A stretch of DNA of 63,013 nt, filler included, from Octopus bimaculoides (taxonomy: Eukaryota): the NCBI RefSeq assembly GCF_001194135.2. It is 8 parts of 8 records of this genome, joined end to end, with 100 filler letters (N's around TTAATTAATTAA, not from the genome) between each part and the next. Parts side by side here need not be neighbours in the genome. Positions count along the whole stretch, not along the records: positions 39,583 to 47,017 come from NW_026356043.1; positions 47,118 to 61,439 come from NC_069007.1; 6 more parts are not named here. One strand, 5' to 3'. A model generated the notes under the pieces. It saw nothing but the letters and a program-made list of their open reading frames with translations, was not told the DNA's origin and did no database searches. Of the stretch, positions 11,977 through 54,324 are shown in pieces. The first letter of the stretch is position 1, and each line of letters begins with the position of its first letter. Made by a program: the position numbers and the translations under genes.

Positions 11977-12416
11977 GCGGCGAGCTGGCAGAGACTTTAA
12001 GACGCTGGCCGAAATGCTTAGCGCTATTTTGTCTGTCTTTATGCCCTGAGTTCAAATTTCGCAGCGGTCAGCTTGGCCTTTCAGCCTTTCGGGGTCGATA
12101 AATTAAGTACCAGTTACGCACTGGAGTCGATGTAATCGACTTAATCCGTTTGTCTGTCCTTGTTTGTCCCCTCTGTCTGTAGCCCCTTGTGGGCAGTAAA
12201 GAAATAAGAAATAAGAAACTTTAGCACGCCGGGCGAAATGCTTAGCAGTATTTCGTTTCTCTTCACTTTCTGAGTTCCAATTCTGCGGAGGGCATCTTTG
12301 CTTTTCATCATTTCTAGGTCGATAAATTAAGTACCAGTTGCGTACTGGGGTGGATCTAATCGACTTCCCCCTCCCCCAAAATTTCGGACCTTGTGCCTGG
12401 AGTAGAAAAAAATATT
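11977..12416 (+). mobile_element. Two tandem tRNA-derived SINE family A copies
   Basis: gcggcgagctggcaga..gaaatgcttagc..gagttcaaatt (A/B-box-like)..ggggtcgataaattaagtaccagtt; second copy from about 12218. Confidence 0.85.
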
Positions 12417-12949
12417 ATGGCAATCGACAGATGTTGCATTTGGTACAGTTTTCCACGATTAAGGAGTGTCGTGCTATCAGTCACTATTACTGATGTTTTT
12501 GGTTATTACATAATGTTTTTTTTTTTTTGGTGCTGTAATTCTTTGATTCGCTAGTACAATTGCTGTTGCTGCTGATGATACTACAATTACTACTTCTACT
12601 GATACTACTGTACTAATGAGTTATAGTTAGAGAAGCTAGAGGTGAAAGAAAAGTCAGTGAGAGAGAAAAAAAAAGAGAGAGGAGGAGAGAGATGGGGGAG
12701 AGAGAAAAGACGGAAATATAGAAGAAATATTTATTTTTCTATCTTTATTGTCTTTGGTGTTTTCATTCCAGAAGTGATTTAGATATTGAGCTAGAGTTTA
12801 CACATACACACGCACGCACATACCCACACACATACACACACATATATACACACACGCATATATATATTCAATATATAATCTATATAACTTTATGTGTAAA
12901 TATCTATCTACATACATGTATATATCTGCGTGTGCGAGTATATGTGGGT

Positions 12950-12988
<39 letters not shown>

Positions 12989-14988
12989 TACATCCATACA
13001 TACATAAATACATACATACATANNNNNNNNNNNNNNNNNNNNNNNNNNNNNNNNNNNNNNNNNNNNNNNNNNNNNNNNNNNNNNNNNNNNNNNNNNNNNN
13101 NNNNNNNNNNNNNNNNNNNNNNNNNNNNNNNNNNNNNNNNNNNNNNNNNNNNNNNNNNNNNNNNNNNNNNNNNNNNNNNNNNNNNNNNNNNNNNNNNNNN
13201 NNNNNNNNNNNNNNNNNNNNNNNNNNNNNNNNNNNNNNNNNNNNNNNNNNNNNNNNNNNNNNNNNNNNNNNNNNNNNNNNNNNNNNNNNNNNNNNNNNNN
13301 NNNNNNNNNNNNNNNNNNNNNNNNNNNNNNNNNNNNNNNNNNNNNNNNNNNNNNNNNNNNNNNNNNNNNNNNNNNNNNNNNNNNNNNTATATATATATAT
13401 ATATATTAAACACTCCGTTTATCTACCATATGTCTGTCTATCTATCTATCTATCTACCTATCTATCTACCTGTCTGTCTGTATATGCTTGCATGCATGTA
13501 TGCATGTATGTATGCATGTATGTATGTATGTATGTATGCATGTATGTATGTATGTATGCATGTATGTATGCATATGCGTGTGTATAGGTTTACATGCTTA
13601 TGAATATAGGAGTGTGTGTGAAAGAGAGAGAGTGTGCCTGTAAATATGTATGACTAAATATGTCACCTGTGATAACTCTCACAACAGACATTGTCATTTG
13701 TACTACCACCACCACCACCACCACCACCACTACTACTACTACTACTGGTGCTGCATCGGCATCTGCAACCAGTGCACTCTATTATGCATTGTTATAGCTT
13801 CAGTTGGAAAGATTGTTGCACCCTGCTGTCGAGAATGTGACTTGGTGTTCAGCTGTTGTTCGTTGCCGAGTAACCAACGCCGGATGATGTGGTCGCTGTG
13901 GAAGCATGACGACATAAAGCGATGCGTGTATGTTGCAAATAGCACGCGCAATATACACGTGAAGACAGGCACTGGATACATACATACATACAGACAGACA
14001 TCCATACATACATTCGAGTATATAAATATATACATACGTGTATATGTGCATATGTATAATTTTTATGTATTACAAACACACACCACACACNNNNNNNNNN
14101 NNNNNNNNNNNNNNNNNNNNNNNNNNNNNNNNNNNNNNNNNNNNNNNNNNNNNNNNNNNNNNNNNNNNNNNNNNNNNNNNNNNNNNNNNNTATATAAAGT
14201 TAATATTAACAGTTATGAAAACTAATTTGAGAAAGGAAATCAAAACTGGCCCATTGAGTAAGTCCCAATCAACAATCTCCTTCATTCCAGGAGAGCGTCT
14301 CTAACACTCTCCCTGTCTCTCACTCTCTCTCTCCTCTCTCCCTCTCTCATTCTACCTCCCTCTTATCTCTTTATCTCACTCTCTCTTCCCCCATCCCTTT
14401 CTCCAATTAGTAGACATAACTGAAAACTATAATGTAATTTGTCCGATGTCTGTTTCTAACAATACAAAGTATTATACCATTTTTCATTGGCTAAATCAAT
14501 AAATGGTCTGGACTGGTTATATATCTTTTCCATTTAGCATATATACTCATCAAGTTTTAAGTTCAAATCTAACTAAGTTCTGCATTAGAATTCTATGAAT
14601 CGTGGTCGAAGCATTAAACATTAATCAACTTCTTTCTTTGAGATTATCGATAATACCTTTCAATGTGGTACCGTAATCTAGTGATTATGACGAATCAAGG
14701 AATAAAACGCAACGCATAGATTAGTGAATTTTTCCAAATTGATCTCTTAATTAGATATTATCGATGTTTTATTGAGGTATGTTAATTATTCATGTCATCT
14801 TCCATGCAATCGGTAAGCAATAGATCTTAGGTTCGAGTAACTACAAAAATCGGTTCTCGTTTTCTGTCGTATGTCCAGCATGGTCAGGCTTACAAAGGGT
14901 TTATTTATGTAGAAAATCATAATAATCGTTTATGTATTGTGTGTGTGTGGGTGTGAGTGTGGGTGTCTAATGACTGAAACAGGTAAAA

Positions 14989-15030
<42 letters not shown>

Positions 15031-15777
15031 NNNNNNNNNNNNNNNNNNNNNNNNNNNNNNNNNNNNNNNNNNNNNNNNNNNNNNNNNNNNNNNNNNNNNN
15101 NNNNNNNNNNNNNNNNNNNNNNNNNNNNNNNNNNNNNNNNNNNNNNNNNNNNNNNNNNNNNNNNNNNNNNNNNNNNNNNNNNNNNNNNNNNNNNNNNNNN
15201 NNNNNNNNNNNNNNNNNNNNNNNNNNNNNNNNNNNNNNNNNNNNNNNNNNNNNNNNNNNNNNNNNNNNNNNNNNNNNNNNNNNNNNNNNNNNNNNNNNNN
15301 NNNNNNNNNNNNNNNNNNNNNNNNNNNNNNNNNNNNNNNNNNNNNNNNNNNNNNNNNNNNNNNNNNNNNNNNNNNNNNNNNNNNNNNNNNNNNNNNNNNN
15401 NNNNNNNNNNNNNNNNNNNNNNNNNNNNNNNNNNNNNNNNNNNNNNNNNNNNNNNNNNNNNNNNNNNNNNNNNNNNNNNNNNNNNNNNNNNNNNNNNNNN
15501 NNNNNNNNNNNNNNNNNNNNNNNNNNNNNNNNNNNNNNNNNNNNNNNNNNNNNNNNNNNNNNNNNNNNNNNNNNNNNNNNNNNNNNNNNNNNNNNNNNNN
15601 NNNNNNNNNNNNNNNNNNNNNNNNNNNNNNNNNNNNNNNNNNNNNNNNNNNNNNNNNNNNNNNNNNNNNNNNNNNNNNNNNNNNNNNNNNNNNNNNNNNN
15701 NNNNNNNNNNNNNNNNNNNNNNNNNNNNNNNNNNNNNNNNNNNNNNNNNNNNNNNNNNNNNNNNNNNNNNNNNNNNN

Positions 15778-15840: not shown

Positions 15841-17121
15841 TCATGTCGTCAAGTATGAAATTTGTAGTAAGGTATATGATAAATTTTGACAGCTGCTCAT
15901 TTTGCGCCATTATTATATTTTGACAATCTGTTTTTTTTCGTTAGAAAATCGACACATCTATTTATTTATTCTAACTCATTTTGCACTTTATAAAGTATTT
16001 ATATATCGTTTATTGCTATTTTTGTTTAGAGACAGGTAAGTCGGAAATTCGTACAGTTTTGAAATATGAGTTCTTTCCTGGAAATACAGCATCACAGACA
16101 ACTGGGAATATTAACGGAGTATTTGATTCGAATGTTATTATACAGCAGACAGTAACAAACTGGTTTGCAAAATTTCCTTCTGGTAACTTTGACCTCACAG
16201 ATGAGCAATCAGAAACAAAGGGGGATAATGACGGCAAGAAAGAAAGGTCAATAATGACGAACTGAAAGCCACCATCGAGTGGCCATGAATTATCGTTGTT
16301 GTTTGCTGTTACTGAGCAAACAATATTGACTCACCTAGTTCAAATCGGTAAAGTGAAAAATTTGGATAAGTGGGTTCCACATGAACTCAATGAAAATCAG
16401 AAACAGCAACGTTTGGAAGGCTGCATTATGCTACTTTCTCGTCACAAAAATGAATAATTTTTTAATCGAATTGTAACGTGATGAGAAAGAGATCCAATAC
16501 ATCAACCGTAAACATTCAGCAAAATGGTTGGACAAAGACGAGCCACCAAAACACAGTCCAAAAATCAACATTCATCAGAAGAAGCTAATGGTGTGTGTTT
16601 GGTGGTTTGGCGCAGGTGTGATCTATTATGGTTTCATTAAAACTGGCTCATCAATCACGGCCGAATTATACTGCACCCAACTGGACCAAATGATGCAGAA
16701 ATTTACAAAAAACAGCCTTGATTAGTCAACAGATCCACTCTTATTTTATTGCAAGACAATGCAAGAACACACATCGCAAAAATGACATTGGCGAAACTAC
16801 AGGAGTTGTAATTGGAAGTACTCCATCATCCACCATACTCACCTGATCTTGCCCCCAGTGGCTACCACTTCTTCCAGAATTTGGATAATTTTTTGATTGG
16901 TAAAAAATTTAATTCCGATGATGCTGTGAAACCGGCCTTCCAAGATTTTATTGACTCTAGATTGCCAGGCTTTTACAGTTCCGGGCTGGACAAGCTACCG
17001 CTGAAATGGCAAAAGTGTATTGACAATATGGGTACATATTTTGATGAATAAACTATTCCTTGTATTTATAAAACATTAGGAAACTATCTGTTTTCTACAA
17101 ATTTCATACTTGACAACCTAA
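15841..17121 (+). mobile_element. Full-length defective mariner (D,D34D) transposon, 1281 bp
   Basis: 27-bp TIRs at 15841-15867 and 17095-17121 (24/27 identical), each flanked by TA. Transposase motifs WVPHEL, LQDNAR and HPPYSPDLAPS. Confidence 0.92.
16031..17051 (+). pseudogene. Mariner transposase pseudogene
   Basis: Pieces KSEIRTVLKYEF..WFAKF, DKWVPHEL, KKLMVCVWW, LHHPPYSPDLAPSGYHFF..GTYFDE*. Frameshifts; third catalytic Asp reads Gly (PSGYH). Confidence 0.9.
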
Positions 17122-18921: not shown

Positions 18922-19022
18922 NNNNNNNNNNNNNNNNNNNNNNNNNNNNNNNNNNNNNNNNNNNNTTAATTAATTAANNNNNNNNNNNNNNNNNNNNNNN
19001 NNNNNNNNNNNNNNNNNNNNNG

Positions 19023-20099
19023 CTTTTCACCTGTATGAGTGTATTTGTGGCTTCTTAAGCAACTACTATGAGAGAAAGATTTACCACAGATATCACAGTG
19101 ATGTGGCTTCTCTCCCGTATGAATACGTTTGTGTGTAGTTAGGTTACCACAGGTAGTAAAAGATTTACCACAGATATCACAGTGATATGGCTTCTGTCCT
19201 GTATGAACACGTTTGTGTCTAGTTAGCTGACTATTTTCATAGAACACTTTACCACAGATATCACAATGATAAGGCATCTCTCCTGTATGAATATGTTTGT
19301 GTTTAGTTAGGTTACCACTGGACACAAAAGATTTACCACAGCTATCACAGTTATATGGCATTTCATTTGTATGAATACGTTTGTGTGTAGTTAAGTTAAT
19401 ATTTTGAGAGAATGATTTATCACAGATGTCACAGTGGTATGGCTTCTCTCCTGTATGAATACGTTTGTGTTTACTTAAATGACTATTTTGAGAAAAAACT
19501 TTACCACAGATATTACAGTGATATGGCTTCTCTCCCGTATGTGTACGTTTGTGTGCAGTTAAGTAACGATTTTGAGAGAATGATTTACCACAGATACCAC
19601 AATGAAAAGGCATCTCTCCTGTATGAATACGTTTGTGTGTACTTAAGCTATTATTTTGAGAGAACATTTTACCACAGATATCACAGTGATATGGCATCTC
19701 TCCTGTATGAATACGTTTGTGTTTGGTTAGGTTACCACTGGAAGTAAAAGATTTACCACAGATATCACATCGATATGGCTTTACACCTGTATGAATATAT
19801 TTGTGTGCAGTTAACTTACTATTTTGAGAGAATGATTTACCACAGATATCACAGCAATATGCCTTTTCACCTTTATGAATACATTTGTGTCTAGTTATGT
19901 CAGCACTGTAAGTAAAAGATTTACCACAGATATCGCAGTGACATTGTTTCTCTCCCATATGAGTATGTTTGTGAATAATTGGGTTGCTTTTATGAGAATG
20001 AGATTTCTCACAGACATCACAGTCACATGACAAATTTTGTCTCTCTTTTATAATGTCTTCATGGGAAATCAGTTCTTTAAGTTTCTCACTCTTCTCCAT
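19023..20099 (-). CDS. Tandem C2H2 zinc-finger protein (12 fingers visible, no KRAB/SCAN); 3' end lost in gap
   Basis: Uninterrupted 359-codon frame from ATG at 20099 ([10 protein letters not shown]..), with repeated [20 protein letters not shown] units. The ORF-track start at 20114 is a TTG, so 20099 is preferred. Confidence 0.93.
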
Positions 20100-20406
20100 T
20101 ATTCTTCTTCTCAAATTGCAATGTCCTGCTTTTCTTCTTAAAGTTTCCTCCTATAAATGCTTCCACTCTTGTAACTCTATCCACTGTTACCTTTCTCTAG
20201 CAATACTTATGTAAGTTTATCCATGTTTCATCAATGCACTATCTCATCTTCTTGACATTGCAGTCAGTGATGTTCAGAAGTTTTGCTAATAATCTCAGGA
20301 ATTCTATAACAGATTTAGAGAAACAATGTTATATAATTGTTTTGTATAAGATTTTCCTTTAGCTACTGAGAATGTATCTTCTGTTAAGCCAATGTTATTT
20401 GATATT

Positions 20407-21253: not shown

Positions 21254-22150
21254 GGGTGTAAGGAACTGGATGGGGTGGAGTGGGAAGGTAGAGTAGGAGC
21301 GTGTTGGGGTGTGGTGGGATGAGCTTACGGTGACCCGTACTGGGAGTGTGTGGATGTTGCAATGCTAAGAATCGTGAGGCCGTGCAGTTACTGATGCAGG
21401 TATTTAGATCAGGACACGACGGAAAAAGAGAACAATGGAAGCTGTGAAGGCTGTAGAGTCGTGAATAAGACACGGAGATACTCATGTGTGTTGCACTATG
21501 TCGAGATGCAAGGAAAGGACAGGAGGTCACTAACCCGAAACGAAGTGCAAGTGCAAGCTCTGATGTAAAGGAACGAACTAGCAGGTGTGTTGGGCTGAGG
21601 CGTCTGACAGCTTAAATTAAGTTGGGTCCAAACGGTAACCCCTTGTGTCTCAAGGCCTGGCCGTTGGAAATGGAAGCCCTTCCGATAAAATTCCTAATTC
21701 AGGCAGATTACAATGCCTTATTTCACCCATGAAACTGCTACCCCCTGTACCTGAAGAGACGAATTCCGGGGAATATTCTCATTAACTGTCCAAAAGTTCT
21801 GGGAGAGAGTCGTTACGGATGGTGGTAAGATCAGATTGTGTACATCATAACCGACATCATCAGACGTGAATAGATGACTTACACGCATATAGTGTGAAAA
21901 CCATGAGCTGGTATGCCCGGACAATGCATACCTAAGAATAAATTCAAATACGAAATAGAAGCCGTTTGATTCAGTTCGAGTAGGTGATATTAATAAGCCT
22001 CAAAAATGGCGAAACATCGATGTCTATCACTCTTGAATGGGGATTGGGGTGAGTTGTCTCACCTGTACATCACTTTCAGGTGTTATAAACCCAGTGCTTC
22101 GAAGCGCCAGTGTTTTAATGGTGGCAGCTGATGAAGGATATGTTATCTAT
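21254..22150. mobile_element. Probable Penelope-like element remnant
   Basis: Weak minus-strand similarity (FLASRHSATHMSISVSYSRLYSLHSFHCS versus the PLE motif YL...S.HP..CK.SIPYSQFLRLRRICS). Adjacent decayed hammerhead, and a 26-nt motif shared with 47309-47335. Confidence 0.35.
21984..22030 (+). ncRNA. Decayed type I hammerhead ribozyme fold (core mutated to UUAAUAA)
   Basis: Stem I gtgata/tatcac, stem II gcc/ggc, GAAA, palindromic stem III acatcgatgt, GUC triplet; the core differs from CUGAUGA at 3 positions. Confidence 0.6.
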
Positions 22151-31515: not shown

Positions 31516-31986
31516 GATCATGTATACATACAAGCATACATACATACATATATGCACGCATACATACATGCATGCATACATACATTTGTCCTCTTTCGCT
31601 TGTTCAGCCGTTGACATCATAGATTTACTTTCATTTATTCTGTCGTTGGGGACTTTGAATATCTTTGTTTCTTTTCGTGGTGTGCTTTTTAAATGCTCTG
31701 AGATCAGTGAGAACAGACACCCCTCTGTCAATGTTTCCACGGGAACAGTTTGGCCAGTAAATCAGCGGTTCGGGTCTTACCCTGATCATGACCGGTCGCC
31801 CAAAAGTGTGAGAACCAGTAGCTGAGGAGAGGCTATATATTGCGCGTCACTCAAATAAGAGTATTATCTTTACACAGCCTTTGAGCAGAATCTGTCTTCC
31901 TGATGGACTGGTTACGAAGGCGAAGCTCAAGTAACGACTATGTTGACGGCAGTCCATTGCATTTTCGTTGCCTGATTCTTCAAGTC

Positions 31987-32169
31987 ACATCTCAGATGAT
32001 GTGCCGCATAGAATGTCTTCGAGACTACAGTGTTTAGTTCACTTCTTGTATGTTGGTATCCACCACAATCAAATACTTGATATTTGATTGTGGTGGATAC
32101 CAACATACAAGAAGTGAACTAAGCACTGTAGTCTCGAAGACATTCTCTGCGGCACATCATCTGAGATGT
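31987..32169. repeat. Near-perfect inverted repeat: 89-bp arms, 5-nt loop
   Basis: 31987-32075 versus reverse complement of 32081-32169 shows 2 mismatches; loop CTTGA. Confidence 0.95.
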
Positions 32170-32368
32170 AAAATGCAGAGCAATTCTCAGCTGCACAAAG
32201 ATATAAAAATTTACTGAAATTTCATTTCAACAGAAGGACATATTGTAACTACATTTAAACTCTCCAAGTAGAGAAGAATACAAAACAAAGCCATTTTGAC
32301 TTAGCCATACTATACAGGCTAGTCTTTCTATACCTTTCTGCAGCTGAAGATTGCTCTGCATTTTACAT
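32166..32368. repeat. Second inverted repeat (30-44-bp arms), MITE-like
   Basis: 32166-32195 versus reverse complement of 32339-32368 shows 2 mismatches, extending inward imperfectly. Confidence 0.75.
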
Positions 32369-32899
32369 TTACTGTAATGCTCACATTGCTTAAATAAATG
32401 GAGTTGCATGAAACGATCGTACTGCATTAACTTTGGATATCCTTGTTGCTTATTTTGATTTTAATCACCTTATTTTGGAATTGTTTGGATAATACCATAC
32501 TTAATTCTGGTGCCTAAACTTGAGTACCATATTCACCTTGAATCTATATATATATATATATATATACAAAGAATATATATACATGTATACACACATATAT
32601 GTACATACTTACATCTATATGTGTATATATATGCATATCAGGGTACAGGANNNNNNNNNNNNNNNNNNNNNNNNNNNNNNNNNNNNNNNNNNNNNNNNNN
32701 NNNNNNNNNNNNNNNNNNNNNNNNNNNNNNNNNNNNNNNNNNNNNNNNNNNNNNNNNNNNNNNNNNNNNNNNNNNNNNNNNNNNNNNNNNNNNNNNNNNN
32801 NNNNNNNNNNNNNNNNNNNNNNNNNNNNNNNNNNNNNNNNNNNNNNNNNNNNNNNNNNNNNNNNNNNNNNNNNNNNNNNNNNNNNNNNNNNNNNNNNNN

Positions 32900-38067: not shown

Positions 38068-38100
38068 CTCCCTGGACAGAAGTCCAATTTGTTTATAAAC

Positions 38101-38356
38101 CTGTGGTTCTCAACCACTGTTTTACCTATGGGCACCTTTGATACCTATTCTATTCTACTGGACCCCCGTAGCCATTCAATGTTTTAAAAACCCTGTTATA
38201 TTTTTATAATTAAATATTATTAAGAATTGTATAAAAAAAGCTGTTGAAGTATTTTGTGTATTGCGGAAGTATAACCAATTTATTGCAGGTAAATTTTAAC
38301 AATAAAGTCTTATATGGACCCTTAAGGGCCATGTGAACCCCGGTCGAGTACTACTG
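38101..38356 (+). mobile_element. hAT/Charlie-like MITE
   Basis: Termini ctgtggttctcaacc and ggtcgagtactactg resemble CAGTGGTTCTCAACC TIRs; 8-bp flanks ttataaac/ttacaaaa (6/8) fit a decayed hAT TSD. Confidence 0.65.
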
Positions 38357-40335: not shown

Positions 40336-41788
40336 ATGTATGATATTTCCAAATTGGACAAAGGACCTCAGGTTCTAAAGTCATTAGTACCAGATGATAA
40401 CACCGCAGAAACCAAAGTTTGATCTTTGATTCCAAAATAGAAATTACAACAACTATCACAACCAAAAAGACAACTCTCTTTTAGCTATGCTTTAAGTAAT
40501 TGCTTTTAGTTGTGAAATGGTCTTAATTTTTAATGCCTGTGGAAACTATGAATTAGTTTCAATTAAATGCAACCCATTTGAGATAATCTCTGAAACTAGG
40601 GATTGTCTTGGAGATAGATCTTACTTTAACAGGGATCATTAAAATGACAGCCCCTATATGTATATATATATATATGTTAGAGGGAGCGAGAAACTATAAA
40701 TCAGTTTCTCTGTTTGGGCCATTATGAAAACTGTTTTTGTATGTATGTATGTATGTATGTATGTATGTATAAATGTATAAAGCCACCGAAATCGGTCTGA
40801 CTGCTTGAAAATGTTCTATTTTATTTAGTTGTCAAAGCAATATCTTCTTTCATTTTTATTTGTATAAATATGGGTTTGTGTATGCGCGTGTGCTTGTATG
40901 TATGAGTGCGCGCGCGCGTTTGCGAGTGTATGTGCGTCAGAGTGTGTGAAGGTTCCCATGTCAACTATAAAGAAGTATCTTTGACGTCATGAGAAAGAAT
41001 TATATATTTAGTCTATTATTGAACTCGTAATCTAATGCATGTCACATATATGTTACGGGAAAGCCCTTTTAACAGTGCATATTTACGTATGGCTGACGTC
41101 ATAAAGACTATTTTTATGTGTGTATGTATGTATATATATATATATATAGATGGATTTGTGCGTGTGTATGTATGCCTGCATATGTGTGCTTGTCAATGTA
41201 AGCTCCTAATATATATATATATANNNNNNNNNNNNNNNNNNNNNNNNNNNNNNNNNNNNNNNNNNNNNNNNNNNNNNNNNNNNNNNNNNNNNNNNNNNNN
41301 NNNNNNNNNNNNNNNNNNNNNNNNNNNNNNNNNNNNNNNNNNNNNNNNNNNNNNNNNNNNNNNNNNNNNNNNNNNNNNNNNNNNNNNNNNNNNNNNNNNN
41401 NNNNNNNNNNNNNNNNNNNNNNNNNNNNNNNNNNNNNNNNNNNNNNNNNNNNNNNNNNNNNNNNNNNNNNNNNNNNNNNNNNNNNNNNNNNNNNNNNNNN
41501 NNNNNNNNNNNNNNNNNNNNNNNNNNNNNNNNNNNNNNNNNNNNNNNNNNNNNNNNNNNNNNNNNNNNNNNNNNNNNNNNNNNNNNNNNNNNNNNNNNNN
41601 NNNNNNNNNNNNNNNNNNNNNNNNNNNNNNNNNNNNNNNNNNNNNNNNNNNNNNNNNNNNNNNNNNNNNNNNNNNNNNNNNNNTATATAATGTCAAAGGA
41701 ATTCCACTTAAGTCGGAAATCTAGGCATATGCACTTGACGTCATAATGCATACATTATGAAGAGCCGTGACCTGGTGGTTACGCTGTA

Positions 41789-42180: not shown

Positions 42181-42911
42181 TAGCATAGATTTTTTATTGC
42201 TTTACTTGTTTCAGTCATGTGACTGCGGCCGTGTTGGAGCACCGCTGTTGGTAGAAGAAATCAACCACAGGATTTATTAAATATCATCTGTAAAATGTAG
42301 CTGCCGGTCGTGCGTCTGCTGTATTTAATAATACTGATCTGACGCATTTTCGTAACAGTTTGAACGGCCAGAGAAAGCAGACGTCTGCGAGTGTATGTGC
42401 GTCAAAATAAGTATCTTTGACGTCATGAGAAAGAATTATATATTTAGTCTGTTATTGAACTCGTAATCTAATGCATATCACATATATGTTACGGGAAAGC
42501 CCTTTTAACAATGCATATTTACGTATGGCTGACGTCATAAAGACTATTTTTATGTGTGTATGTATGTATATATATATATATATAGATGGATATGTGCGTG
42601 TGTGTGTGTGTGGCTACATATTTGTACATATTTGTGCGTGTCAGTGTAAGCTCCTAATATATATATATATATATGTCAAAGGAATTCCACTTAAGTCGGA
42701 AATCTAGGCATATGCACTTGACGTCATAATGCATACATTATGAAGAGCCCGTGATCTGGTAGTTACGCTGTTGCTCTGACGACTGCAGGTTCGATCCTGA
42801 GAGTGGGCAGTGCCTATATCTCTCCTATAATAACAAAGATAAAATCTAACGAAATCCTAAGGATTTAATAATAGTTATGTATGTGTTTTTTCGTGTTTTG
42901 TTCGAAAGGTA

Positions 42912-42997
42912 ACCACTCCTGAAGAAGTGCCAAATGTCTAAATCCAATGGACCAGTCACTGGATAAGTTTGGCACAGAAATGTTAACATAGAGTGGT
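42912..42997 (+). ncRNA. Type I hammerhead ribozyme (CUGAAGA core, AUA site)
   Basis: Stem I accactc/gagtggt, core 42919-42925, stem II gtgccaaa/tttggcac, GAAA 42977-42980, palindromic stem III atgttaacat; A.A mismatch at the base of stem II. Confidence 0.75.
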
Positions 42998-43372
42998 GAA
43001 TAAATCGATATATCGAATTTGAAGTCTCTGTCTCTTTTAAATATGAAAATTTAAAAGTTAAAAACTTTATAATATAAATATAAACTGTGAGAACGACCCT
43101 TANNNNNNNNNNNNNNNNNNNNNNNNNNNNNNNNNNNNNNNNNNNNNNNNNNNNNNNNNNNNNNNNNNNNNNNNNNNNNNNNNNNNNNNNNNNNNNNNNN
43201 NNNNNNNNNNNNNNNNNNNNNNNNNNNNNNNNNNNNNNNNNNNNNNNNNNNNNNNNNNNNNNNNNNNNNNNNNNNNNNNNNNNNNNNNNNNNNNNNNNNN
43301 NNNNNNNNNNNNNNNNNNNNNNNNNTATATATATATATTCGGTTAAAATGTCTTACGTTTAAGCTGGTTCCC

Positions 43373-43477
43373 ATGCATTTTCCTGAAGAGAAGATTACAT
43401 TCTTATCAACATCACCTATTCCTATGGAAGGTATAATTTGTAATCTTCGAAACATATGTTGGAAATAAAAGTATGCA
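43373..43477 (+). ncRNA. Type I hammerhead ribozyme (CUGAAGA core, GUU site)
   Basis: Stem I attttc/ggaaat, core 43383-43389, 10-bp stem II gaagattaca/tgtaatcttc closed by G-C, GAAA 43449-43452, palindromic stem III acatatgt. Confidence 0.8.
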
Positions 43478-43687
43478 GTTAACATATACGTTTTACTCCA
43501 TTTACTAAATATATATATAAAAACATACCATTGTTTGTGTATGTTTATGTTTGTGTGCGTGCATATGTGTGTTGTCGACGCCTAATGAAATTTATAAATA
43601 AAGGTCTAGACGGTAGGATGTAAAAACTGTACTGAAACCCCTTCCACAAAGGAAGGATCGAATGCTGTATGTATGTGTGTCCTCTGT

Positions 43688-44068
43688 AGGGTAATGCTGG
43701 ATAGATTGCTTCTGCACATTGCTGATGAGGTTCTACCAGAATCGCAATGTGGGTTTAGGGATAGTAGGAGTACTGTGGATATGATATTTTCGGCTACACA
43801 CTTGCGAGAGAAGTGCATCGAACAGGATATGGTCTTATACCAGGTTTTCATCGACCTAACAAAAGCGTTTGATTCTATCAATAGAATTGCACTTTGGGAG
43901 ATCCTAAAAAAGCTAGGATGCCCTGAAAAAATTTGTAAGAATGCTTAGACAGTTTCATGACAAGAGTTAATGTTGGAGGTACCTTATCAGATCCAATTTC
44001 TGTAGAAAATGGTGTAAAGCAAGGTGATATTCCTGCTCCTACACTGTTTGCTATATATTTCGCAGTAC
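43688..44068 (+). mobile_element. RTE (BovB-like) LINE reverse transcriptase fragment
   Basis: LPESQCGFRDSRSTVDMIF..FIDLTKAFDSINR..LWEILKKLGCPEK..NGVKQGDIPAPTLF. Confidence 0.9.
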
Positions 44069-44589
44069 GTATGAATGTGCGTATGTATGTATGTGTGTGG
44101 GTGTATATATACGCGCGTAACTGTGTCAAGAGTACCTCCTATGTGCTATAAATAAATATCGTTGACGTCATAAGACACTATATATAAATCTATATACTTA
44201 TATATTTCTAAAGAAATCGTGACATCTTTCTTACTGCTAACCATTCAACTTCAAATTACAATTGTTAATTGTTGAAAATCAAGAAGACTGAGATGTACTG
44301 AGATGTTATCGTAAAGTGTACAAGTTCAATACGAAATGTTGAATTCGTTATTTTGTGGTTAGTAATTCATTACCTTAAATTTGAAGCCTTTAGGTCTTTA
44401 AACATTATTTTACTAGGTTTTGGCTTTCGACTGTCGCCATGATGGCGTATCAATCGCCTTCAAGAATTTAATTGATCATACTGACCTCAGTCCGTATTTC
44501 AATCTGGCATTTATTTTATAGATCTCTACTTGATGAACTGCTAACTTTGAGACATAGTGGGACACAATATTCGATTTAACAACAGATGT

Positions 44590-44645
<56 letters not shown>

Positions 44646-45506
44646 TAGGGCCATGTACGACTGTATGGTTGAGAAGTCTGCTTCCTAACCACATGGTTTC
44701 ACGTTCAGTTCCTCTGCATGGTACCTTGGGCTTCATACACTCGCGCGCCGATTCTGCCTATAAGAAAGGAAAGAACGATACAATGTAGCCGTAGGTCCAT
44801 AACACTCTGGCAACGCCGGGGTGCATTGCTTCTGTGTGTGTGTGTGTATTTGTGTGTATATATGTAAGTGCGTGTGTGTATGTATTTGTGAGAGTGTGCA
44901 CCCATGCTTGTATGTATATGTATGTTGAACAAGCAGTATCCTTGGGTGGAAGGTGCCTGTCTTGTTTTATGTTCTTGTGTCTCCTCTGCCTTCGCCATCT
45001 TGTGCACCCAGTTGACCCGTCACATGTAACCCTAACCCTAATGTCTTCGTACCATTGTACGTCTGTCTTCCCGTCCGTCCGTCCGTCCGTTCGTCTGTCT
45101 GCCTTTCTGCCGGTGAATTTTTATGTCCAACACGGCTTGAACACCACGTCAGAGATCCTCTCCAACCTATTGACATGATCCACAGACATGGCAAGATACT
45201 CAGTGATAATATGACTACTTGCAGGCTTAGGAGTGTGAGTGCGCCATGATCTCAAGTGCAAGCTAATGGCGCCCGAAATGTCCAAGGTCATTCCTTGCAC
45301 GTCTGGCTTTATATTGGAGTGGCCTTCTCCGAGAGACATGCTTTAGCAACAGCTGAGGAGTGCTTCATCCTCAGCGGTCTTATTGCACGCACGCACGCAC
45401 GCACGCACACATACATACATACAAAGGTTTGGTTGAAGCAACAACATAAGTAGAACTCAGAATATGAGTGTGTGAATATATTTTCTATTATTCTGAATCA
45501 GCAGAA

Positions 45507-45571
45507 ACTTAGAAAAGTCACGCATTGACCGAGTGTTTCGTGTGTGGCACTCATCAGACTGTTTTCTAAGT
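45507..45571 (-). ncRNA. Type I hammerhead ribozyme (canonical CUGAUGA/GAAA/GUC)
   Basis: Minus strand reads acttagaaaa-cagt CTGATGA gtg-ccaca-cac GAAA c-actcg-GTC aatg-cgtgac-ttttctaagt; 10-bp distal stem I with a 6-nt bulge. Confidence 0.8.
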
Positions 45572-45675
45572 CCCATACAAATACTCTCGACTGTTGTGTC
45601 AATGGTTGCTTTCTGTTATGTCGCAACCTGTGTCACCAAGACAGCTCTAGCATTGTCAAAACAAACTCGCCGATC

Positions 45676-45790
45676 TTTGCTCGAGATAATAAACTAAAGG
45701 ATATAATCACGGATCGAGCTATGATTCTAAGTAAAAGACAGCCGGAAAATCCTGAAACAATTATTAACAAAGGCAATGTTTGACATAAGC
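45676..45790 (+). mobile_element. Penelope-like element coding fragment (linker before GIY-YIG)
   Basis: With one frameshift reads FARDNKLKDIITDRAMILSKRQPENLKQLLTKAMF, resembling the PLE motif SKRQP.NLK.LLT.A.F; lies beside a hammerhead. Confidence 0.45.
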
Positions 45791-46400
45791 AACAATGACG
45801 AATCATTCATTGTACCTAAATACAATGATAACTTGTGGAGGCGCAATGGCCCACTTGAATACTGGGGTCAATGCAATCGACATACCCCCTTCCACCAAAT
45901 TGCTGGCCTTGTGCCAAAATTTGAAATCATTATCATTATTATCATTATTATTATTATTATTATTATTGTTAGGGCGGCGAGCTGGTAGAATGGTTNNNNN
46001 NNNNNNNNNNNNNNNNNNNNNNNNNNNNNNNNNNNNNNNNNNNNNNNNNNNNNNNNNNNNNNNNNNNNNNNNNNNNNNNNNNNNNNNNNNNNNNNNNNNN
46101 NNNNNNNNNNNNNNNNNNNNNNNNNNNNNNNNNNNNNNNNNNNNNNNNNNNNNNNNNNNNNNNNNNNNNNNNNNNNNNNNNNNNNNNNNNNNNNNNNNNN
46201 NNNNNNNNNNNNNNNNNNNNNNNNNNNNNNNNNNNNNNNNNNNNNNNNNNNNNNNNNNNNNNNNNNNNNNNNNNNNNNNNNNNNNNNNNNNNNNNNNNNN
46301 NNNNNNNNNNNNNNNNNNNNNNNNNNNNNNNNNNNNNNNNNNNNNNNNNNNNNNNNNNNNNNNNNNNNNNNNNNNNNNNNNNNNNNNNNNNNNNNNNNNN

Positions 46401-46705
46401 GGGTGTTTATTGAGCGAAAACACTTAAAGCTCCACGAGGCTCCGGCAGGGGATGGTGGCGAACCCTGCTGTACTCTTCCACCACAACTTTCTCTCACTCT
46501 TACTTCCTGTTTCTGTTGTGCCTGTAATTCAAAGGGGCCAGCCTTGTCACACTCTGTGTCACGCTGAATATCCCCGAGAACTACGTTAAGGGTACACGTG
46601 TCTGTGGAGTGCTCAGCCAGTTGCACGTTAATTTCACGAGCAGGCTGTTCCGTTGATCGGATCAACTGGAACCCTCGACGTCGTAAGCGACGGAGTGCCA
46701 ACAAC
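46401..46705 (+). mobile_element. SINE family C
   Basis: Matches 29500-29665 and the reverse complement of 26657-26748. Confidence 0.8.
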
Positions 46706-47355
46706 AATGATAATTTAAACTAAATATATTTATGGTAATAGCTCAAACCTACACAGAATACAAAAGACCTTTAAACTTCTCTATGTCACGATGTAAGATT
46801 TTTTTTCTACCCTGACGTCAGAGGCTCAATTTATCCACTGTTTATTTGCTTCCTTTACTAGCTGCATATTTTGGTGATATACATCTACCAACATTATGAA
46901 GCATCTCTGACACCCCAGAAACAGCTGTTGGACTTATAACACCTTAATTCTTCCTCTTTAATTTTCTCTGTCGTTTATACTCCGTGTAAGTTCGATCTAT
47001 GTGTGTGTGTATATATANNNNNNNNNNNNNNNNNNNNNNNNNNNNNNNNNNNNNNNNNNNNTTAATTAATTAANNNNNNNNNNNNNNNNNNNNNNNNNNN
47101 NNNNNNNNNNNNNNNNNAATAGCATAAAAAAAACAAAAATTAAAATGTACCAGTGTACCCGGATGATGCATACGTAAGAACAAATTCAAATATGAACGAG
47201 AAACAGTACTAGTGGTGTAAACATTATCAAACACACAGACTCGATATATGTGCTTTGCTTGTTTGCCGGTATGCTGCGATTTGATGTGGTGGAGACGACT
47301 CCATCAATGCACTGGGTGTTAAAACACCTGAAAGTCAAAGACTGGTTTGGGTACA

Positions 47356-47400
47356 TGATGTTGATGAGCCACGAAAAGGGTGAAACATCGATGTCCATTA
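47356..47400 (+). ncRNA. Slightly decayed type I hammerhead (core UUGAUGA, GUC site)
   Basis: Stem I tgatg/catta, stem II gcc/ggt, GAAA 47382-47385, palindromic stem III acatcgatgt identical to the 21984 copy. Confidence 0.65.
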
Positions 47401-48311
47401 CTGCCAAATGGGATTTGTGGGGGGGGGTTGTCTCGCCCGTCTTCTCTGAGTACTCACCAGTTCCTAATTAATTATATTAAAAAAGAAAAATTTAAAAATT
47501 GGAAAATATAAATTTAAAAAAAAAACATGAACATAGTCATATATTTAATGAAACATGCATAAAAGCAAAATGTATATTTTTATACATATACACATATACA
47601 TACATACACACACTCACTTCTCTGGTTATTGGCTAATTGCTATTCAAGCATGAAACCTACTGTCAGCCCACCCATATACCTGCATGCCTGCCTGTCTGTC
47701 TGACTCTAATGTCTGTCCACCTCTCTCCCAATTAGTACAAGGTTATTCATATTTAACAACTGCTGTCTTTCAATCAATGGAGAAGGCTCTGCCAACTAGA
47801 AATAGTTTAACCACATTCCTACTTTATACCTTCTCTCTCTCTCTCTCCCTTTCTCTCTCTTTCCCCTCCCTCCCCCTCTCACAAACACACACACACACAC
47901 ACTTTGCCATGTGGTACGAGCTCCACACCTCACTCCTTTCCACTCAATTGTTCCCGATCTTTTATGTACATATATCTTTTTTTTTACAAATTATGCTCGA
48001 GAAACTAAACTAGTATTACAAGCTAGATAGTCATCAAAATATCAAATATCGAAGCTATTTAATCAAGAATGCCATGTGTGTGTGTGTGTGTGTATGTGTA
48101 CATGTGTGTGTGTGTGCATACGTGTGTTTAGTCACAGAGTCTAGGAAAAAAAAAAGCAAAAACAACTTTTTTGTTATCATCGATGGCGCCATTTTGCTTC
48201 AGTGTTTTAGCATTTACTAATCACTTTAAACTCCATACACCCAGTTTTTTTCTTACTTTCTTTGGCCTTTTTCTCTTCTAATGAAGATTACACATACACA
48301 CATGCATGTGT

Positions 48312-48560
48312 GTGGTTAAGAAGCTTGCCTAGTAACCATCTAGTTTCAGGTTCAGTTCCACTCTGTGGCACCTTGGGGTGTATATCTTTTACTATAACCT
48401 CAGACAGACCAATTTCATGTGAGTGAATTTGGTAGACAGAAACTGTGTGTAAGCCCATTGTGTGTGTGTGTGTGTGTTTTACCTACCCATACTACTTAAC
48501 CTGTGTTGGTTTGTGCTCATCCCTTAAACTCAGCAGAAGAGACCGATAGAATAAGTATCA
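48312..48560 (+). mobile_element. SINE family B (diverged)
   Basis: gtgtggttaagaagcttg..ggttcagttcca..ggcaccttgg..gaccgatagaataagta. Confidence 0.7.
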
Positions 48561-48598
48561 AACATGAAAAGCACCAGGGAAAATTTGCTCCACTAAAT

Positions 48599-49385
48599 CA
48601 GGGATTCTCAACCATTTTTTTTATTATGGACCCCTTCAATTACTACTTTATTCTGGTGGCCCCCTATAGTCATTCAATGCTTAAAAACTAGTTTTATAGA
48701 AACTTTTCAAAATCCCTATTTTTTTTTTTTGTCACACATTCACTTGTATAGATTGAACTTTGTAAAATGTTAGAGAAAGAAACCTAGCTGTTTCTTGCAA
48801 TACATACCAACACATACATCTAAATCAGGGGTTCTCAACCATTTTTATTCTATGAACCCTCTTTGATTACTATTTTATTCTGGCGGACCCTGCTATAGCC
48901 ATTCAGTATTTAAAAACTAGTTTTATAGATACTTCTTTCAAAATACCTATTTTGTTATTCAAACATTAACTTGTGTTGGTTGAATTATGTATAATGTTAG
49001 AGAAAGAATCCTAATTGTTCCTTGCAATACATACCAATACATACATCTAAAACAAAATTTTTTCAGGGGCCCTTAAAATGCTACAGTAGGTCCCCAATTT
49101 AATATTTTGCTTGCTTGGACCCCCTTTGATTACTTTTCTATTCTGGTGAACCCTTCTTTCAAAATTCCTATTTTGGTTTTTCGCACATTAACTTGGGTAG
49201 CTTGAATTATGTCAAATGTTAGAGAAACAAGCTTAGCTGTTTCTTGTAATACATACCAATACATACATCAAAATCAGGGGTTTTCAACTATTTTTTTTAT
49301 CTATGAATCCCCTTTGATTACTATTTTATTCTGGTAGGTGCCCATAGCTATTCTATGTTTAAAGACTAGTTTTATAGATGCTTCT
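48599..49385 (+). mobile_element. Nested/tandem array of hAT/Charlie-like MITE units (~227 bp)
   Basis: TIR-like caggg(a/g)tt(c/t)tcaac at 48599, 48826 and 49275; internal sequence repeated about 3.5 times. Confidence 0.8.
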
Positions 49386-49712
49386 GTAGTGGTTATATAT
49401 AGTCAGCACAAGGTGTTGATGTGGTTGTGTGTATGTTATAACAATAGTTCATAAAGAGGTGAAAGAATAAATTCAAGATCTATATATTTACATAAAAATA
49501 TATTTTATTTACTGGTCAATGATGATACATAGAATCAAAATGTAGAATGTAGTTGAATGAAATAATCTCTGCAAGAAAGTTTAGAGGTAGAAAATGTAGA
49601 AATAACAGCTAAGTGGTGGTTTTCAGTCATGTGGTGTAGAGAAATAGATGGACATAGCAATAACATGAATGGCTTTAAGTCTAATTGACTAAGAAGTGAA
49701 GAGCTGGGTTTT

Positions 49713-49990
49713 GATCGTTACCAGCCTTACTGGCACTTGTGCCGGTGGTACATGGAAAACACCATTTGAGCATGGCTGTTGCCAGTACCACGTGACTGGC
49801 CCTCATGCCGGTGGCGCATAAAAGCACCCACTACACTCTTGGAGTGGTTGGCATTAGGAAGGGCATCCGGCTGTAGAGACTCTGTCAGATCAGATTGGAG
49901 CCTGGCGCAGCCATCGGGCTCACTAGTCCCCAGTCAAACCGTCCAACCCATACCAGCATGGAAAGTGGGTGTTAAACGATGATGATGATG
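49713..49990 (+). mobile_element. RTE LINE 3'UTR with (GAT)n tail
   Basis: aaaagcacccactacactcttggagtggttggcattaggaagggcatcc..ccagcatggaaag..gttaaacgatgatgat matches 56820-57010. Confidence 0.8.
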
Positions 49991-50089
49991 CTAATGATGA
50001 TTTACCTGTCAGTAAATGTTCAGCTTTTATCTTTAAAATTCTGTTATTCAAGCAACCCCTCCAAATTATTATTTATACATATATATAAC

Positions 50090-50121
<32 letters not shown>

Positions 50122-50147
50122 CAACAGCAATTATCATTATTATTGTT

Positions 50148-50652
50148 GACTGAGAGAGCATTGCATACCATCAATGTGACACTGGGATAAAACATATGAA
50201 GCCCAGTATACCTGTCATGATGACCCGTCTGATAAGGGTACACCAGGCACATGCATCACAACCCTATTCGTGTGACATGGTGATCTTGTATCAAGATAAA
50301 CAGTGCATGACATTGCAGGTGGGGCTCAATTAGAATTTTCTTCTGATTGAGTAGCCCCTCCAGCTCAAAAGGTCCCTGAATAAGGGTTGTTTAAGGATGT
50401 TGAATGAAACACCCATGTTTCCAGAGGTGAATTATTCAAACCCCAAACAGTTCCTCCACTACCTCTGCTTGTTATCAGAGATGCACATATCAGCCATCAA
50501 GGGACATGCTCAACTGATTAAGGTCAAACAACTGACAAGTAAATTTGTGGTATTGAGCAGAATATTTGCTGTAGCCCATTTTTATAACAAGACAAAACAT
50601 GTAACTACCAATCAGTTAAGATCAGAAGCCATGTGAGTCAGTACCTGATATT
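50148..50652. repeat. Unclassified ~540-bp interspersed repeat, copy 2
   Basis: Collinear with 3454-3990. Confidence 0.8.
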
Positions 50653-50667
50653 GCATCAGGGCATTTA

Positions 50668-50862
50668 TCTGGCAGAATCGTTAGCACACCAAGTGAAATG
50701 CTTAGCGATATTTCGTCTGCAGCTACATTCTGAGTTCAAAGTTCACTTTGTCTTTCATCCTTTCAGGGTTAGTAAAATAAGTACCAGTGAAACACTGGGG
50801 TCGATGTAAGCAACTAGCCTCCTCCCCAAAATTTCAGGCTTTGTGCCTATAGTAGAAAGGAT
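50668..50862 (+). mobile_element. SINE family A with long (ATT)n tail (50863-51022)
   Basis: ctggcagaatcgttagcac..gagttcaaa..gtagaaaggattatt. Confidence 0.85.
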
Positions 50863-50864
50863 TA

Positions 50865-50950
<86 letters not shown>

Positions 50951-50972
50951 CATTATGATTATTATTATTTAT

Positions 50973-51024
<52 letters not shown>

Positions 51025-51090
51025 CTGTATTAAACTGTATGAAATATCTTTGAGGCCAATTAACAAAGTTTTGTATCTGTATTTTCACAG

Positions 51091-51530
51091 GTAACATGGA
51101 ACTGGCAAATATACTTGAAAATTTTTATGGAGATGTGGAAGCTGTGGAGATGTATGTTGGAATGATTGCTGAGAAACGCCAACACAAATCATTGTTTGGA
51201 CAAACCATTATCGAAATGGGAGCCCCTTTCTCTGTGAAGGGTCTTATGTCGAATCCTATCTGTAGTCCCGGATGGTGGAAGCCGTCCACGTTTGGTGGTG
51301 ATGTAGGTTTCAACATTGTCAAGACACAAACTTTCAAGAAACTGTTTTGTCAAAACATGAAAGACGGTTGTGGATTGGTTAGTTTACGGATACCCGAATG
51401 GACGGAAGAATATGAAGAATCTCGGCGTAAAATTGAAAATGAAGCTATGTACAGGATGCCATCAACAAAGGAATCAACTTCAGAGAAGCCCCTAATGTCA
51501 AACAGTAAACCACAATCGAACGAATTATGA
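51091..51530 (+). CDS. PTGS: Last coding exon of cyclooxygenase / prostaglandin G/H synthase
   Basis: Acceptor attttcacAG at 51090. Translation (G)NMELANILENFYGDVEAVEMYVGMIAEK..FGQTIIEMGAPFSVKGLMSNPICSPGWWKPSTFGGDVGFNIVKT..SNEL* aligns to the vertebrate PTGS final exon, including the phase-1 intron before the Gly and the Ser530 motif GAPFS. Confidence 0.95.
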
Positions 51531-52528: not shown

Positions 52529-53160
52529 TAAAATCGAGAAAAAAAAATCTGTACGTTTAAATTAATTTAAAATTCCTAAACTAAAATTAAGAAACTTTGG
52601 TTTACTTACAATTGAAAAAAGTTGGAGCAAAGTGGTTTATTGAACGATGAGCTTATCAAGCATTTTAGTCTCAAAGAAGAAGAATGGAACTTAAACCTAA
52701 GTAATTTAAATAAATAAAATTATTTGGGTTTTTTTATTTTTCTGTGTGCGTACCTAAGAAAATTATGGCTTATTTTAGAATGCTTACAATTCATAGAGTA
52801 TTATTAATTCAGTTTATTTAGAGTCATAAATTTATATTGCAATTAAATTAAGTTTACATTATTTACATTTTGGAGCCTGCATTTTGAATAGAAATACACA
52901 GATTATATGCCTAATTTGAGTATTACTAATGTTAGCCATAGTATGGTCAGTGTGGCAGCACATTCAATGACAACAACCACCATATGCCACTGATATATAA
53001 GTATATATATATATATAGAAATACAATATCAATATATTATAAATTAACTACCAACAAAAATAATTGGTAAGCTAACTCAAAAAATCATCACCAAAATAGC
53101 AGAAAAAAACGACAGTGAAAGTATGCAGACTCTTCAAGAATCGATCCTTTTGGTTATATT

Positions 53161-53487
53161 AATAATAATAAAGGAGTTACGACGCAAAAACGTTTAAATT
53201 CAAATGAACATATTTATCTTCTTCAATATATATTTCAGTATAAAGAATTCATTAAGAGAGACTTAAATCAAAATTTCTTTACAAAAAATTTTTTTGGCCA
53301 TGAACGGTTTGTGTTTTTAAACGGAATGTATTTTTTCTGATGTTATATTTATTCCTGAATGATGTGTAAAGAAATTTTGATTTAAGTCTCTCTTAATGAA
53401 TTCTTTATACTGAAATATATATTGAAGAAGATAAATATGTTCATTTGAATTTATACGTTTTTGCGTCGTAACTCCTTTATTATTATT
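53161..53487. repeat. Fold-back/MITE-like element: 123-bp inverted arms, 81-bp spacer
   Basis: 53161-53283 versus reverse complement of 53365-53487 shows 1 mismatch. Confidence 0.92.
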
Positions 53488-54324
53488 TATATATAGAAAT
53501 ATTAATATTTCTAAGTCTCTCTAAAGGAGACTACAGCAGCGATACTGGATATTAATAGTTATCGCCAAGCCAACATGGCAGTTCAAAAAATAGGATGAAT
53601 GCTGCCGTTGATTAGCTCCAAGAGGCCATTGCCTCTAGCTAGCTATGTGCTTCACGAATCTGTGTCCATTATAACCTTCGAACAGGGGAGGTCAGCCACT
53701 TCCCCTTGCTGGTCTGGCATCTACAGACTAGTATATATATATACAGAGAGAAAGAGAGAATTTAGTGTATATATTTATATGAAGCTGGTGGTGTGCTGAA
53801 TCACTTCTCAGAGTTTCTTGTTTCATGAGATCTTTCAAACAGCAACACCTGAAGATGTGTGACTGTTACAGATATGTATATAAATGAATATTTGTGTTTG
53901 TGTGTGTTTGTAAACATATACACATGTATATGTCCACATGAAATATAATCTATGAGCATGTATCTGATGCCATTGTAAAGCAGTAATGTGAAAATAGAAA
54001 TGGTCAAAGAAAACCTTGAGTGAATATTTGATACTTGATGAAATAAAATAAAAGTGAGAGGCAGTATGAAGTACTTATGATTCGTGCTTGACTGGTTTAG
54101 CAAACAAATAGAGAGTGAGCAAGAGAATCAAAATGAAAATGGGTTGAAGTAAGACAGCAGTTGGAGTAGTAGGTATTACTGACACAAAAGTACACATATA
54201 TAGCAATTTAGGTGATCCAAACAAGATAACATGTGTTATACCTCTTACATTATATATACCATGCTTTTAAGGATCACATCTTAAGTATATCTTCAAAATG
54301 ATCTTTGTGGGTGTTACAGGGGTG

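Follow-up and report, generated by a model that had tools for sequence, protein, structure and literature searches.

The present study concerns a 63,013-nucleotide stretch of the Octopus bimaculoides genome (the window), in which four sequences shaped like a type I hammerhead ribozyme (HH1 to HH4) precede the last coding exon of a cyclooxygenase (COX) gene. The question raised by this locus is whether these motifs represent one composite element, an insertion hotspot, ribozymes that cut the COX pre-mRNA, or unrelated repeats. An earlier note on the same DNA proposed a hotspot of three families with a possible effect on COX. We consider it probable (approximately 0.75) that the four motifs, hammerhead in shape, have no relation to one another, that two of them reside in repeats with thousands of copies, and that separate short ends of Penelope-like elements (PLEs) landed in one AT-rich, repeat-filled stretch, where they do nothing for COX.

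Hammerhead motifs in the window

A descriptor scan for type I hammerhead cores was run on both strands of the whole window, with 100 local dinucleotide shuffles as the control. Five distinct cores were found, against a shuffle mean of 0.61 and a maximum of 3: HH1, HH2, HH3, HH4, and HH5 (32344-32421). The four topologies described in the earlier note were, therefore, borne out, and three of the four (HH1, HH2, and HH4) are sense to COX, as had been noted, with HH3 on the opposite strand. A palindrome-anchored look and self-BLAST added HH6 (21990-22024), the core of which is eroded, making six motifs in total. When covariant cores were allowed, the relaxed descriptor returned seven matches against a shuffle mean of 3.05. 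Only well-paired motifs are, therefore, counted, and the extra matches at 25468 (+) and 10795 (-) were dropped as being at chance level. None of the motifs in the window reached the gathering score of an Rfam hammerhead model. Weak matches to the Rfam model HH9 were obtained for HH6 (28.7 bits) and HH4 (23.8 bits), the threshold being 52. We infer that the Rfam models poorly represent long-loop or minimal hammerhead variants.

The core CUGANGA/GAAA/UH, with three helices and an open helix I, is exact in HH1, HH2, and HH3; HH4 has U at position 3. A 3-8 pair is required by the hammerhead (PMC11167929), and HH2 and HH3 both possess a Watson-Crick 3-8 pair together with G10.1-C11.1. The short palindromic stem III previously ascribed to these motifs is present in HH1, HH2, and HH4, and also in HH5 and HH6, but not in HH3, the loop III of which is non-palindromic. 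Each of HH1 to HH4 gave a more stable fold than most of the shuffles (z -1.45 to -2.75), and the minimum-energy fold was the hammerhead in HH1 only. When the core was constrained to be open, the active topology lay 0.4 (HH1), 4.9 (HH2), 17 (HH3), and 11.6 (HH4) kcal/mol above the ensemble; these energies describe secondary structure only. Departures from the standard hammerhead core are the A.A and AUA triplet of HH1, the GUU triplet of HH2, the stem I mismatch and non-palindromic loop III of HH3, and the U3.G8 and G10.1.U11.1 of HH4; changes of this kind slow cleavage.

HH1 has the core CUGAAGA (C3 at 42919) and a predicted cut after 42990 (AUA). Stem I has 7 bp, stem II has 9 bp with a long loop, and stem III is the palindrome UGUUAACA. 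The base of stem II carries an unpaired A on either side (A.A at 10.1/11.1), with a G-C pair one step out. The hammerhead accounts for about half of the ensemble (z -2.75), and HH1 may cut occasionally. HH2 has the same core (C3 at 43383), a perfect 10-bp stem II with a long loop, the stem III palindrome CAUAUG, and a predicted cut after 43460 (GUU). In HH3 (CUGAUGA, C3 at 45557; H17 at 45527, GUC), stem II has 3 bp and stem I has a mismatch beside the junction. HH4 (UUGAUGA) has U3 at 47361 opposite G8, G10.1.U11.1, the palindrome CAUCGAUG, and a predicted cut after 47395 (GUC). It is predicted to be misfolded and inactive, with a U3.G8 core and an active fold 11.6 kcal/mol above the ensemble. 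HH5 combines CUGAAGA at 32344 with a CGAUCG palindrome, GUA, and a degenerate stem II.

Sequence families and copy depth of the motifs

In pairwise local alignments of the six elements, only one of the 15 pairs (HH4-HH6) scored above shuffles, and all six pairs among HH1 to HH4 scored at the shuffle level. By sequence comparison, the cluster holds four families, not the three previously counted, and the window five. The statement that the cluster is not one duplicated copy stands, since HH1 to HH4 are mutually dissimilar. The paralogy of HH4 and HH6 extends over 96 bp (73%), plus 45 bp upstream (84%). U occupies core position 3 in both (47361 and 21990), and HH6 has A8. The HH4/HH6 family may carry a U3-A8 covariant core, which reportedly occurs in Schistosoma PLEs.

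Read depth was taken from two sets of DNA contigs (X1, and X14 from a second species) and two raw RNA runs, which were placed at 80% likeness over 42300-47017, an interval that includes neither HH4 nor the COX exon. Single-copy depth was about 37-58 in X1, based on one unique bin and two difference-free contigs, and about 15 in X14. Over the repeat carrying HH1, summed depth in X1 was 55,450 at 42840, 546,777 at 42939, and 196,990 at 43066, and the upstream bin 42616-42773 had a depth of 18.5. Over the repeat carrying HH2, it was 249,254 at 43488 and 2,439 in the next bin. Position 42939 thus reached about 9,400-14,800 times and position 43488 about 4,300-6,700 times single-copy depth; the wider ranges for HH1 and HH2 are 9,400-15,700 and 3,800-6,700. 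These figures give an order of magnitude and not a copy number. Dispersed multi-copy families are indicated by depth for HH1 and HH2 and by the paralogue at 22 kb for HH4.

In X14, the depth was about 280 times single copy at 42939 and about 6,800 times at 43488, which reverses the X1 ratio. Since the HH1/HH2 depth ratio flips between the species, HH1 and HH2 are separate repeats with different histories and not one element. HH1 appears to be a recent, lineage-biased insertion. No near-fixed differences were found inside HH1 or HH2 among the 40 of 381 differences and 12 of 33 indels listed; the old repeat at 44275-44492 has at least 17 among those listed. The sequences suggest that HH1 and HH2 are close to the majority of their families and that their odd positions are family traits.

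The HH3 bin had a depth of 115.8 in X1 and 46.7 in X14, namely, two to three times single copy. A single-copy-depth X14 contig (record 13) spans 45476-45852 with 31 substitutions and 27 gap letters, and the neighbouring X14 stretch 45089-45473 has 26 substitutions and 11 gap letters. The HH3 region is about 8% substituted in the second species, similar to its neighbour. Judging from this alignment, the region is older than the split of the two species, because the single-copy-depth contig covers it, and it bears no sign of extra conservation.

We consider it extremely unlikely that HH1 and HH2 form one composite unit releasing an RNA of approximately 470 nt that circularises and retrotransposes. 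The two motifs have the strand, the CUGAAGA core, and a long stem II in common, and the distance between their predicted cuts is indeed 470, as the earlier note had estimated, with 223 of these positions being N. The retrozyme-like RNA proposed for this interval did not hold, however: HH1 and HH2 come from different repeat families with no similarity between them, a TA tract and the 223 N intervene, and the depth ratio shifts 10- to 50-fold between species. No tandem unit was found for the six motifs, the 15 of 434 joints listed include none that links 43460 back to 42991, and no locus-specific RNA was detected, local reads deriving from other copies. A composite HH1-HH2 element was, therefore, rejected on the grounds of dissimilarity and differing species depth ratios.

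Two further observations were made next to the HH1 element. A stretch just 5' of it (42745-42810) presumably resembles a tRNA B box. A direct local duplication (40969-41787 and 42405-42771, 90-96%) contains several TGACGTCA motifs; it is covered in part by reads, with DNA depth at the single-copy level and no RNA.

Probable Penelope-like origin of the motifs

PLE membership of the motifs is likely, judging from their features and by analogy with described elements. PLE hammerheads are mostly solitary and fall into many families with an enlarged helix II and a palindromic helix III (PMC4209133). The octopus motifs resemble those of Cervera and de la Pena 2014 (PMC4209133) in being type I with a short palindromic helix III and, in HH1 and HH2, an enlarged helix II; in comprising many unrelated families per genome, mostly as solitary dispersed motifs; and in the unpaired base after position 9 of HH1 and the U3 variant of the HH4/HH6 family. 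They differ in the very long stem II loops of HH1, HH2, and HH5 (51-59 nt between the core halves), in the lack of G10.1-C11.1 in HH1 and HH4, and in that no PLE open reading frame (ORF) was detected beside any copy; the available text of that study does not name octopus as one of its species.

PLEs are described as leaving inverted truncated copies and as targeting (TA)n (PMC8557442). Among the motifs, only HH5 adjoins an inverted partial copy (32166-32209), a PLE-typical feature. Measured from the start of the core, the HH2 and HH4 elements extend for about 105-125 bp; an Anolis PLE nicks AT-rich DNA, and its reverse transcription begins 111-118 bp into an ORF that starts at the hammerhead (PMC11167929). 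In O. vulgaris, PLEs occupy 191 Mb (6.83%) in 190 families; their expansion peaked long ago, and 31 families have been active recently (PMC13282606). Octopus Penelope-like content is also treated in PMC8967140.

We propose that each piece would be a pseudo-long terminal repeat (pseudo-LTR), 5'-truncated and about 170-300 bp long, which target-primed reverse transcription produced at AT-rich DNA. HH1 and HH2 would be young, near-majority copies inserted at one (TA)n tract, and HH3 and HH4 old, decaying copies. The ribozymes would have served their parent elements, either as dimers or with the element's protein, and would lack a matching partner in the cluster. Minimal metazoan hammerheads showed no monomer cleavage in vitro (PMC4209133), and the Anolis PLE ribozyme depends for cutting on the protein that its element encodes (PMC11167929). 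Stem III strands of different motifs in the cluster form weak hetero-duplexes, at 0.2 to -4.5 kcal/mol, compared with -7.0 to -12.9 kcal/mol for the self-duplexes of HH1, HH2, and HH4. Since the former are far weaker, there is no double-hammerhead partner in the cluster, and heterodimer cleavage within it was ruled out.

Several points weigh against a Penelope-like origin and the absence of any special arrangement. No Penelope reverse transcriptase (RT) or GIY-YIG remnant was detected by Pfam in 109 reading frames around the six motifs. Pfam searches of 15 and 109 frames returned a LINE-like RT fragment, mariner pieces, and zinc fingers, and no PLE protein; truncated copies are expected to lack the PLE ORF. 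Exact-pattern scans for the HH1, HH2, and HH4/HH6 families in two metagenome and two viral collections gave no match. The nearest called (TA)5+ tract is 2.0 kb from HH3 and 3.9 kb from HH4; therefore, TA targeting explains HH1 and HH2 only. HH3 is near-unique at 80% likeness, such that its repeat origin is a candidate only. HH1 is predicted to fold properly as a monomer, unlike a strictly dimer-dependent motif. Moreover, the motifs lie closer together than would be predicted if they were spread uniformly over the window (P 0.006-0.018).

A different parent was also considered. The motifs may be dispersed monomers of non-autonomous elements (non-LTR retrozymes or hammerhead SINE-like repeats), with active masters in tandem arrays elsewhere and inert local copies, which we regard as unlikely. 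The elements are about 170-300 bp long with no nearby ORF, mussel retrozymes are known (PMC7229834), and solo retrozyme monomers are common, with 42-44% of copies being intronic in two Xenopus species (bioRxiv 10.64898/2026.07.22.740005). Metazoan non-LTR retrozymes (Cervera and de la Pena 2020, PMC7229834; Li et al. 2026 preprint) also have type I hammerheads in short, low-GC, non-coding repeats, and their solo monomers are often intronic. However, retrozymes are tandem repeats of one unit (PMC7229834, PMC7761336), whereas no tandem 150-450-bp units with the same hammerhead were found here and neighbouring ribozymes belong to different families. RNA per unit of DNA depth was lowest in the HH1 and HH2 bins among the eight repeat bins compared (33 and 79 versus 123-1175), yet retrozymes are reported to be highly expressed. 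A long helix II together with a palindromic stem III is in keeping with the PLE variant. Since retrozymes are described as deriving from PLE ends (bioRxiv 10.64898/2026.07.22.740005), this alternative differs from the Penelope-like origin in the parent only.

With at least five families in one window, two of them at thousands of copies, the octopus would join the animals that have Penelope-type hammerheads scattered across their genomes. This is useful for repeat annotation and is not surprising. No report of octopus hammerheads was found in the cephalopod literature searched by title and the start of the abstract, a search that left out most subscription papers and the supplementary alignments of PMC4209133, which could list cephalopods. 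Nor was one found in the main text of PMC7229834, PMC13282606, PMC7761336, or bioRxiv 10.64898/2026.07.22.740005.

Beside HH5, the stretch 31977-32209 consists of a near-perfect hairpin (99-bp arms, 94%, 5-nt spacer) and, immediately after it, the inverted partial copy of the HH5 5' side. This arrangement looks like a PLE inverted junction.

The COX gene, RNA, and clustering of the motifs

The last coding exon of COX encodes residues 466-612 of a 612-aa prostaglandin-endoperoxide synthase labelled O. vulgaris, with 98-99% identity. No other COX exon was found in the called bases of the window by tblastn and a 5-mer search, which gave only chance matches (E > 1). The window contains seven identical 100-bp spacers, starting at 17320, 18922, 21154, 29675, 39483, 47018, and 61440. 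They look like assembly joins, and distances across them are, therefore, unreliable. Accordingly, the distance of 3.7-8 kb given earlier between the motifs and the exon is right on paper (3.7-8.2 kb), but this span includes two N gaps and a 100-bp spacer of indefinite true size. Provided that the contig is correct, HH4 necessarily falls within the last COX intron, because the gap-free stretch 47118-51090 (at least 3,973 bases) leads to the COX acceptor. HH1 to HH3 are beyond the spacer and have a candidate intronic position only: the last intron may be longer than 51 kb, with an antisense zinc-finger ORF inside it, exons may be hidden in gaps, or the join may be wrong. The ORF in question is a C2H2 zinc-finger array of 391 aa at 18978-20150 (-), antisense to COX and nested if the last intron spans the window.

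The sense copies, with HH1 as the best candidate, may cut the COX pre-mRNA during transcription and thereby tune COX expression as co-opted intronic ribozymes; we regard this as very unlikely. Three of the four motifs are sense, HH4 lies within the gap-free intron bases before the acceptor, the most stable fold of HH1 is the hammerhead topology, and intronic ribozymes with effects are known, such as CPEB3 (PMC10919898). However, HH4 has the U3.G8 core and an active fold far above the ensemble, and HH1 has an AUA triplet and A.A at the base of stem II, is apparently a recent, lineage-biased insertion, and lies with HH2 and HH3 past the spacer, with no upstream COX exon in 51 kb. Minimal metazoan hammerheads are reported to lack monomer cleavage in vitro (PMC4209133). 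An intronic position is itself not special, because 42-44% of Xenopus retrozyme copies overlap introns.

The ultraconserved amniote intronic hammerheads HH9 and HH10 and the CPEB3 ribozyme resemble the octopus locus in having a sense motif in or upstream of the intron of a protein gene (HH4) and in the weak HH9 match. They differ in that the octopus motifs score 23.8 and 28.7 against 52 bits and either lie in repeats or have decayed, and in that they show no sign of being conserved. A co-opted ribozyme is expected to be single-copy and conserved with an intact core. At this locus, HH1 and HH2 are high-copy, the HH4 core is altered, and HH3 is antisense and damaged.

About 6% of each RNA run was examined, and the RNA negatives are weak, given that neither the selection of the libraries nor the expression of COX in the samples is defined. 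RNA on the HH1 and HH2 elements was found in both directions and carried alleles foreign to the locus (run X21: 75 of 77 reads at 43066, 82 of 85 at 43488); therefore, it derives from other copies. RNA depth was 0 in the near-unique bins 42458-42773 and 45460-45617 in the two runs, a weak negative. No pile-up of read beginnings or ends was listed at 42990 or 43460 in these two fragmented-cDNA runs, which constitute a weak test. The low RNA/DNA ratio at HH1 and HH2 could reflect silencing, intergenic bias, or cleavage.

We consider a broader proposal very improbable. The HH1 family would be a young octopus expansion (on the order of 10,000 copies) of a long-loop ribozyme that folds and cuts as a monomer; intronic sense copies, including that at COX, would sever pre-mRNAs and, hence, be scarce in RNA, leaving thousands of genomic ribozyme breakpoints, some co-opted for gene control. 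If the HH1 family does cut as a monomer, thousands of intronic copies would be a natural test of the purging, tolerance, or use of transposon ribozymes in host pre-mRNAs.

The remaining question is whether the cluster is more than a coincidence of abundant repeats. For four motifs within 4,489 bp, uniform placement on the 54,994 called bases gave P values of 0.006 (five motifs) and 0.018 (six motifs). When HH1 and HH2 were counted as one site, given their position on either side of a single (TA)n gap, P was 0.05-0.12. This is a modest enrichment in a window that was chosen because of the cluster. In an assumed 2.4-Gb genome, the density outside the cluster predicts about 44 clusters of this kind and the density of the window about 2,200; the two measured families alone give 0.1. 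The "hotspot" of the earlier note does not, therefore, stand out as a special feature: six motifs occur in 55 kb of called bases, HH1 and HH2 are very abundant repeats, and P ranges between 0.006 and 0.12. A true insertion hotspot for several hammerhead families, arising through a shared target preference or the re-targeting of earlier insertions and having no RNA function, is highly improbable in our estimation. The placement of four of six motifs in 4.5 of 63 kb (P 0.018) and of HH1 and HH2 on either side of one TA gap would favour it; the selection of the window, the 44 to 2,200 clusters expected (0.1 from the two measured families), and the spacer of indefinite size inside the cluster speak against it. 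Such a hotspot would be compatible with the separate landing of Penelope-like ends, which we prefer. The features are collected in Table 1.

Table 1. Positions of the hammerhead motifs, their repeats, and neighbouring features in the window
Feature	Position	Strand	Basis or remark
HH6, further HH4-family member with an eroded core (UUAAUAA)	21974..22066	+	self-BLAST; HH9 28.7 bits
HH5, fifth family	32335..32430	+	descriptor scan, self-comparison
High-copy repeat carrying HH1 (approximate extent)	42830..43102	+	X1 read depth; enters N gap
HH1, type I hammerhead	42912..42997	+	descriptor scan, folding
Gap of 223 N between HH1 and HH2, then (TA)n	43103..43325	.	sequence
High-copy repeat carrying HH2 (approximate extent)	43340..43510	+	X1 depth; (TA)n on both sides
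HH2, type I hammerhead	43373..43477	+	descriptor scan, folding
RT fragment, LINE-like, unrelated to the hammerheads	43610..43945	+	PF00078, E 2.4e-10
HH3, damaged type I hammerhead, antisense to COX	45507..45571	-	descriptor scan; read depth
100-bp assembly spacer	47018..47117	.	44 N + 12 fixed bases + 44 N
HH4, short type I hammerhead	47356..47400	+	descriptor scan; gap-free sequence up to the COX acceptor
Last coding exon of COX (prostaglandin G/H synthase)	51091..51530	+	protein match; TTTTCACAG acceptor precedes

Other repeats were noted in the window. The LINE-like RT fragment may be RTE-like, judging from its appearance. The last COX intron contains a tandem array (48593-49385) with 3.5 copies of a 227-bp unit at 70%; dispersed copies of this unit occur at 9644-9879 and 38096-38189, and the array had no hammerhead core in the scan. 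Downstream of the COX stop codon is an inverted repeat (approximately 53150-53500) with arms of roughly 120-140 bp. Remnants of a mariner transposase (PF17906, PF01359) are present at 15975-16722. A SINE-like repeat at 46403-46707 reached about 135,000-210,000 times single-copy depth, with an RNA depth that was thousands-fold and in both directions.

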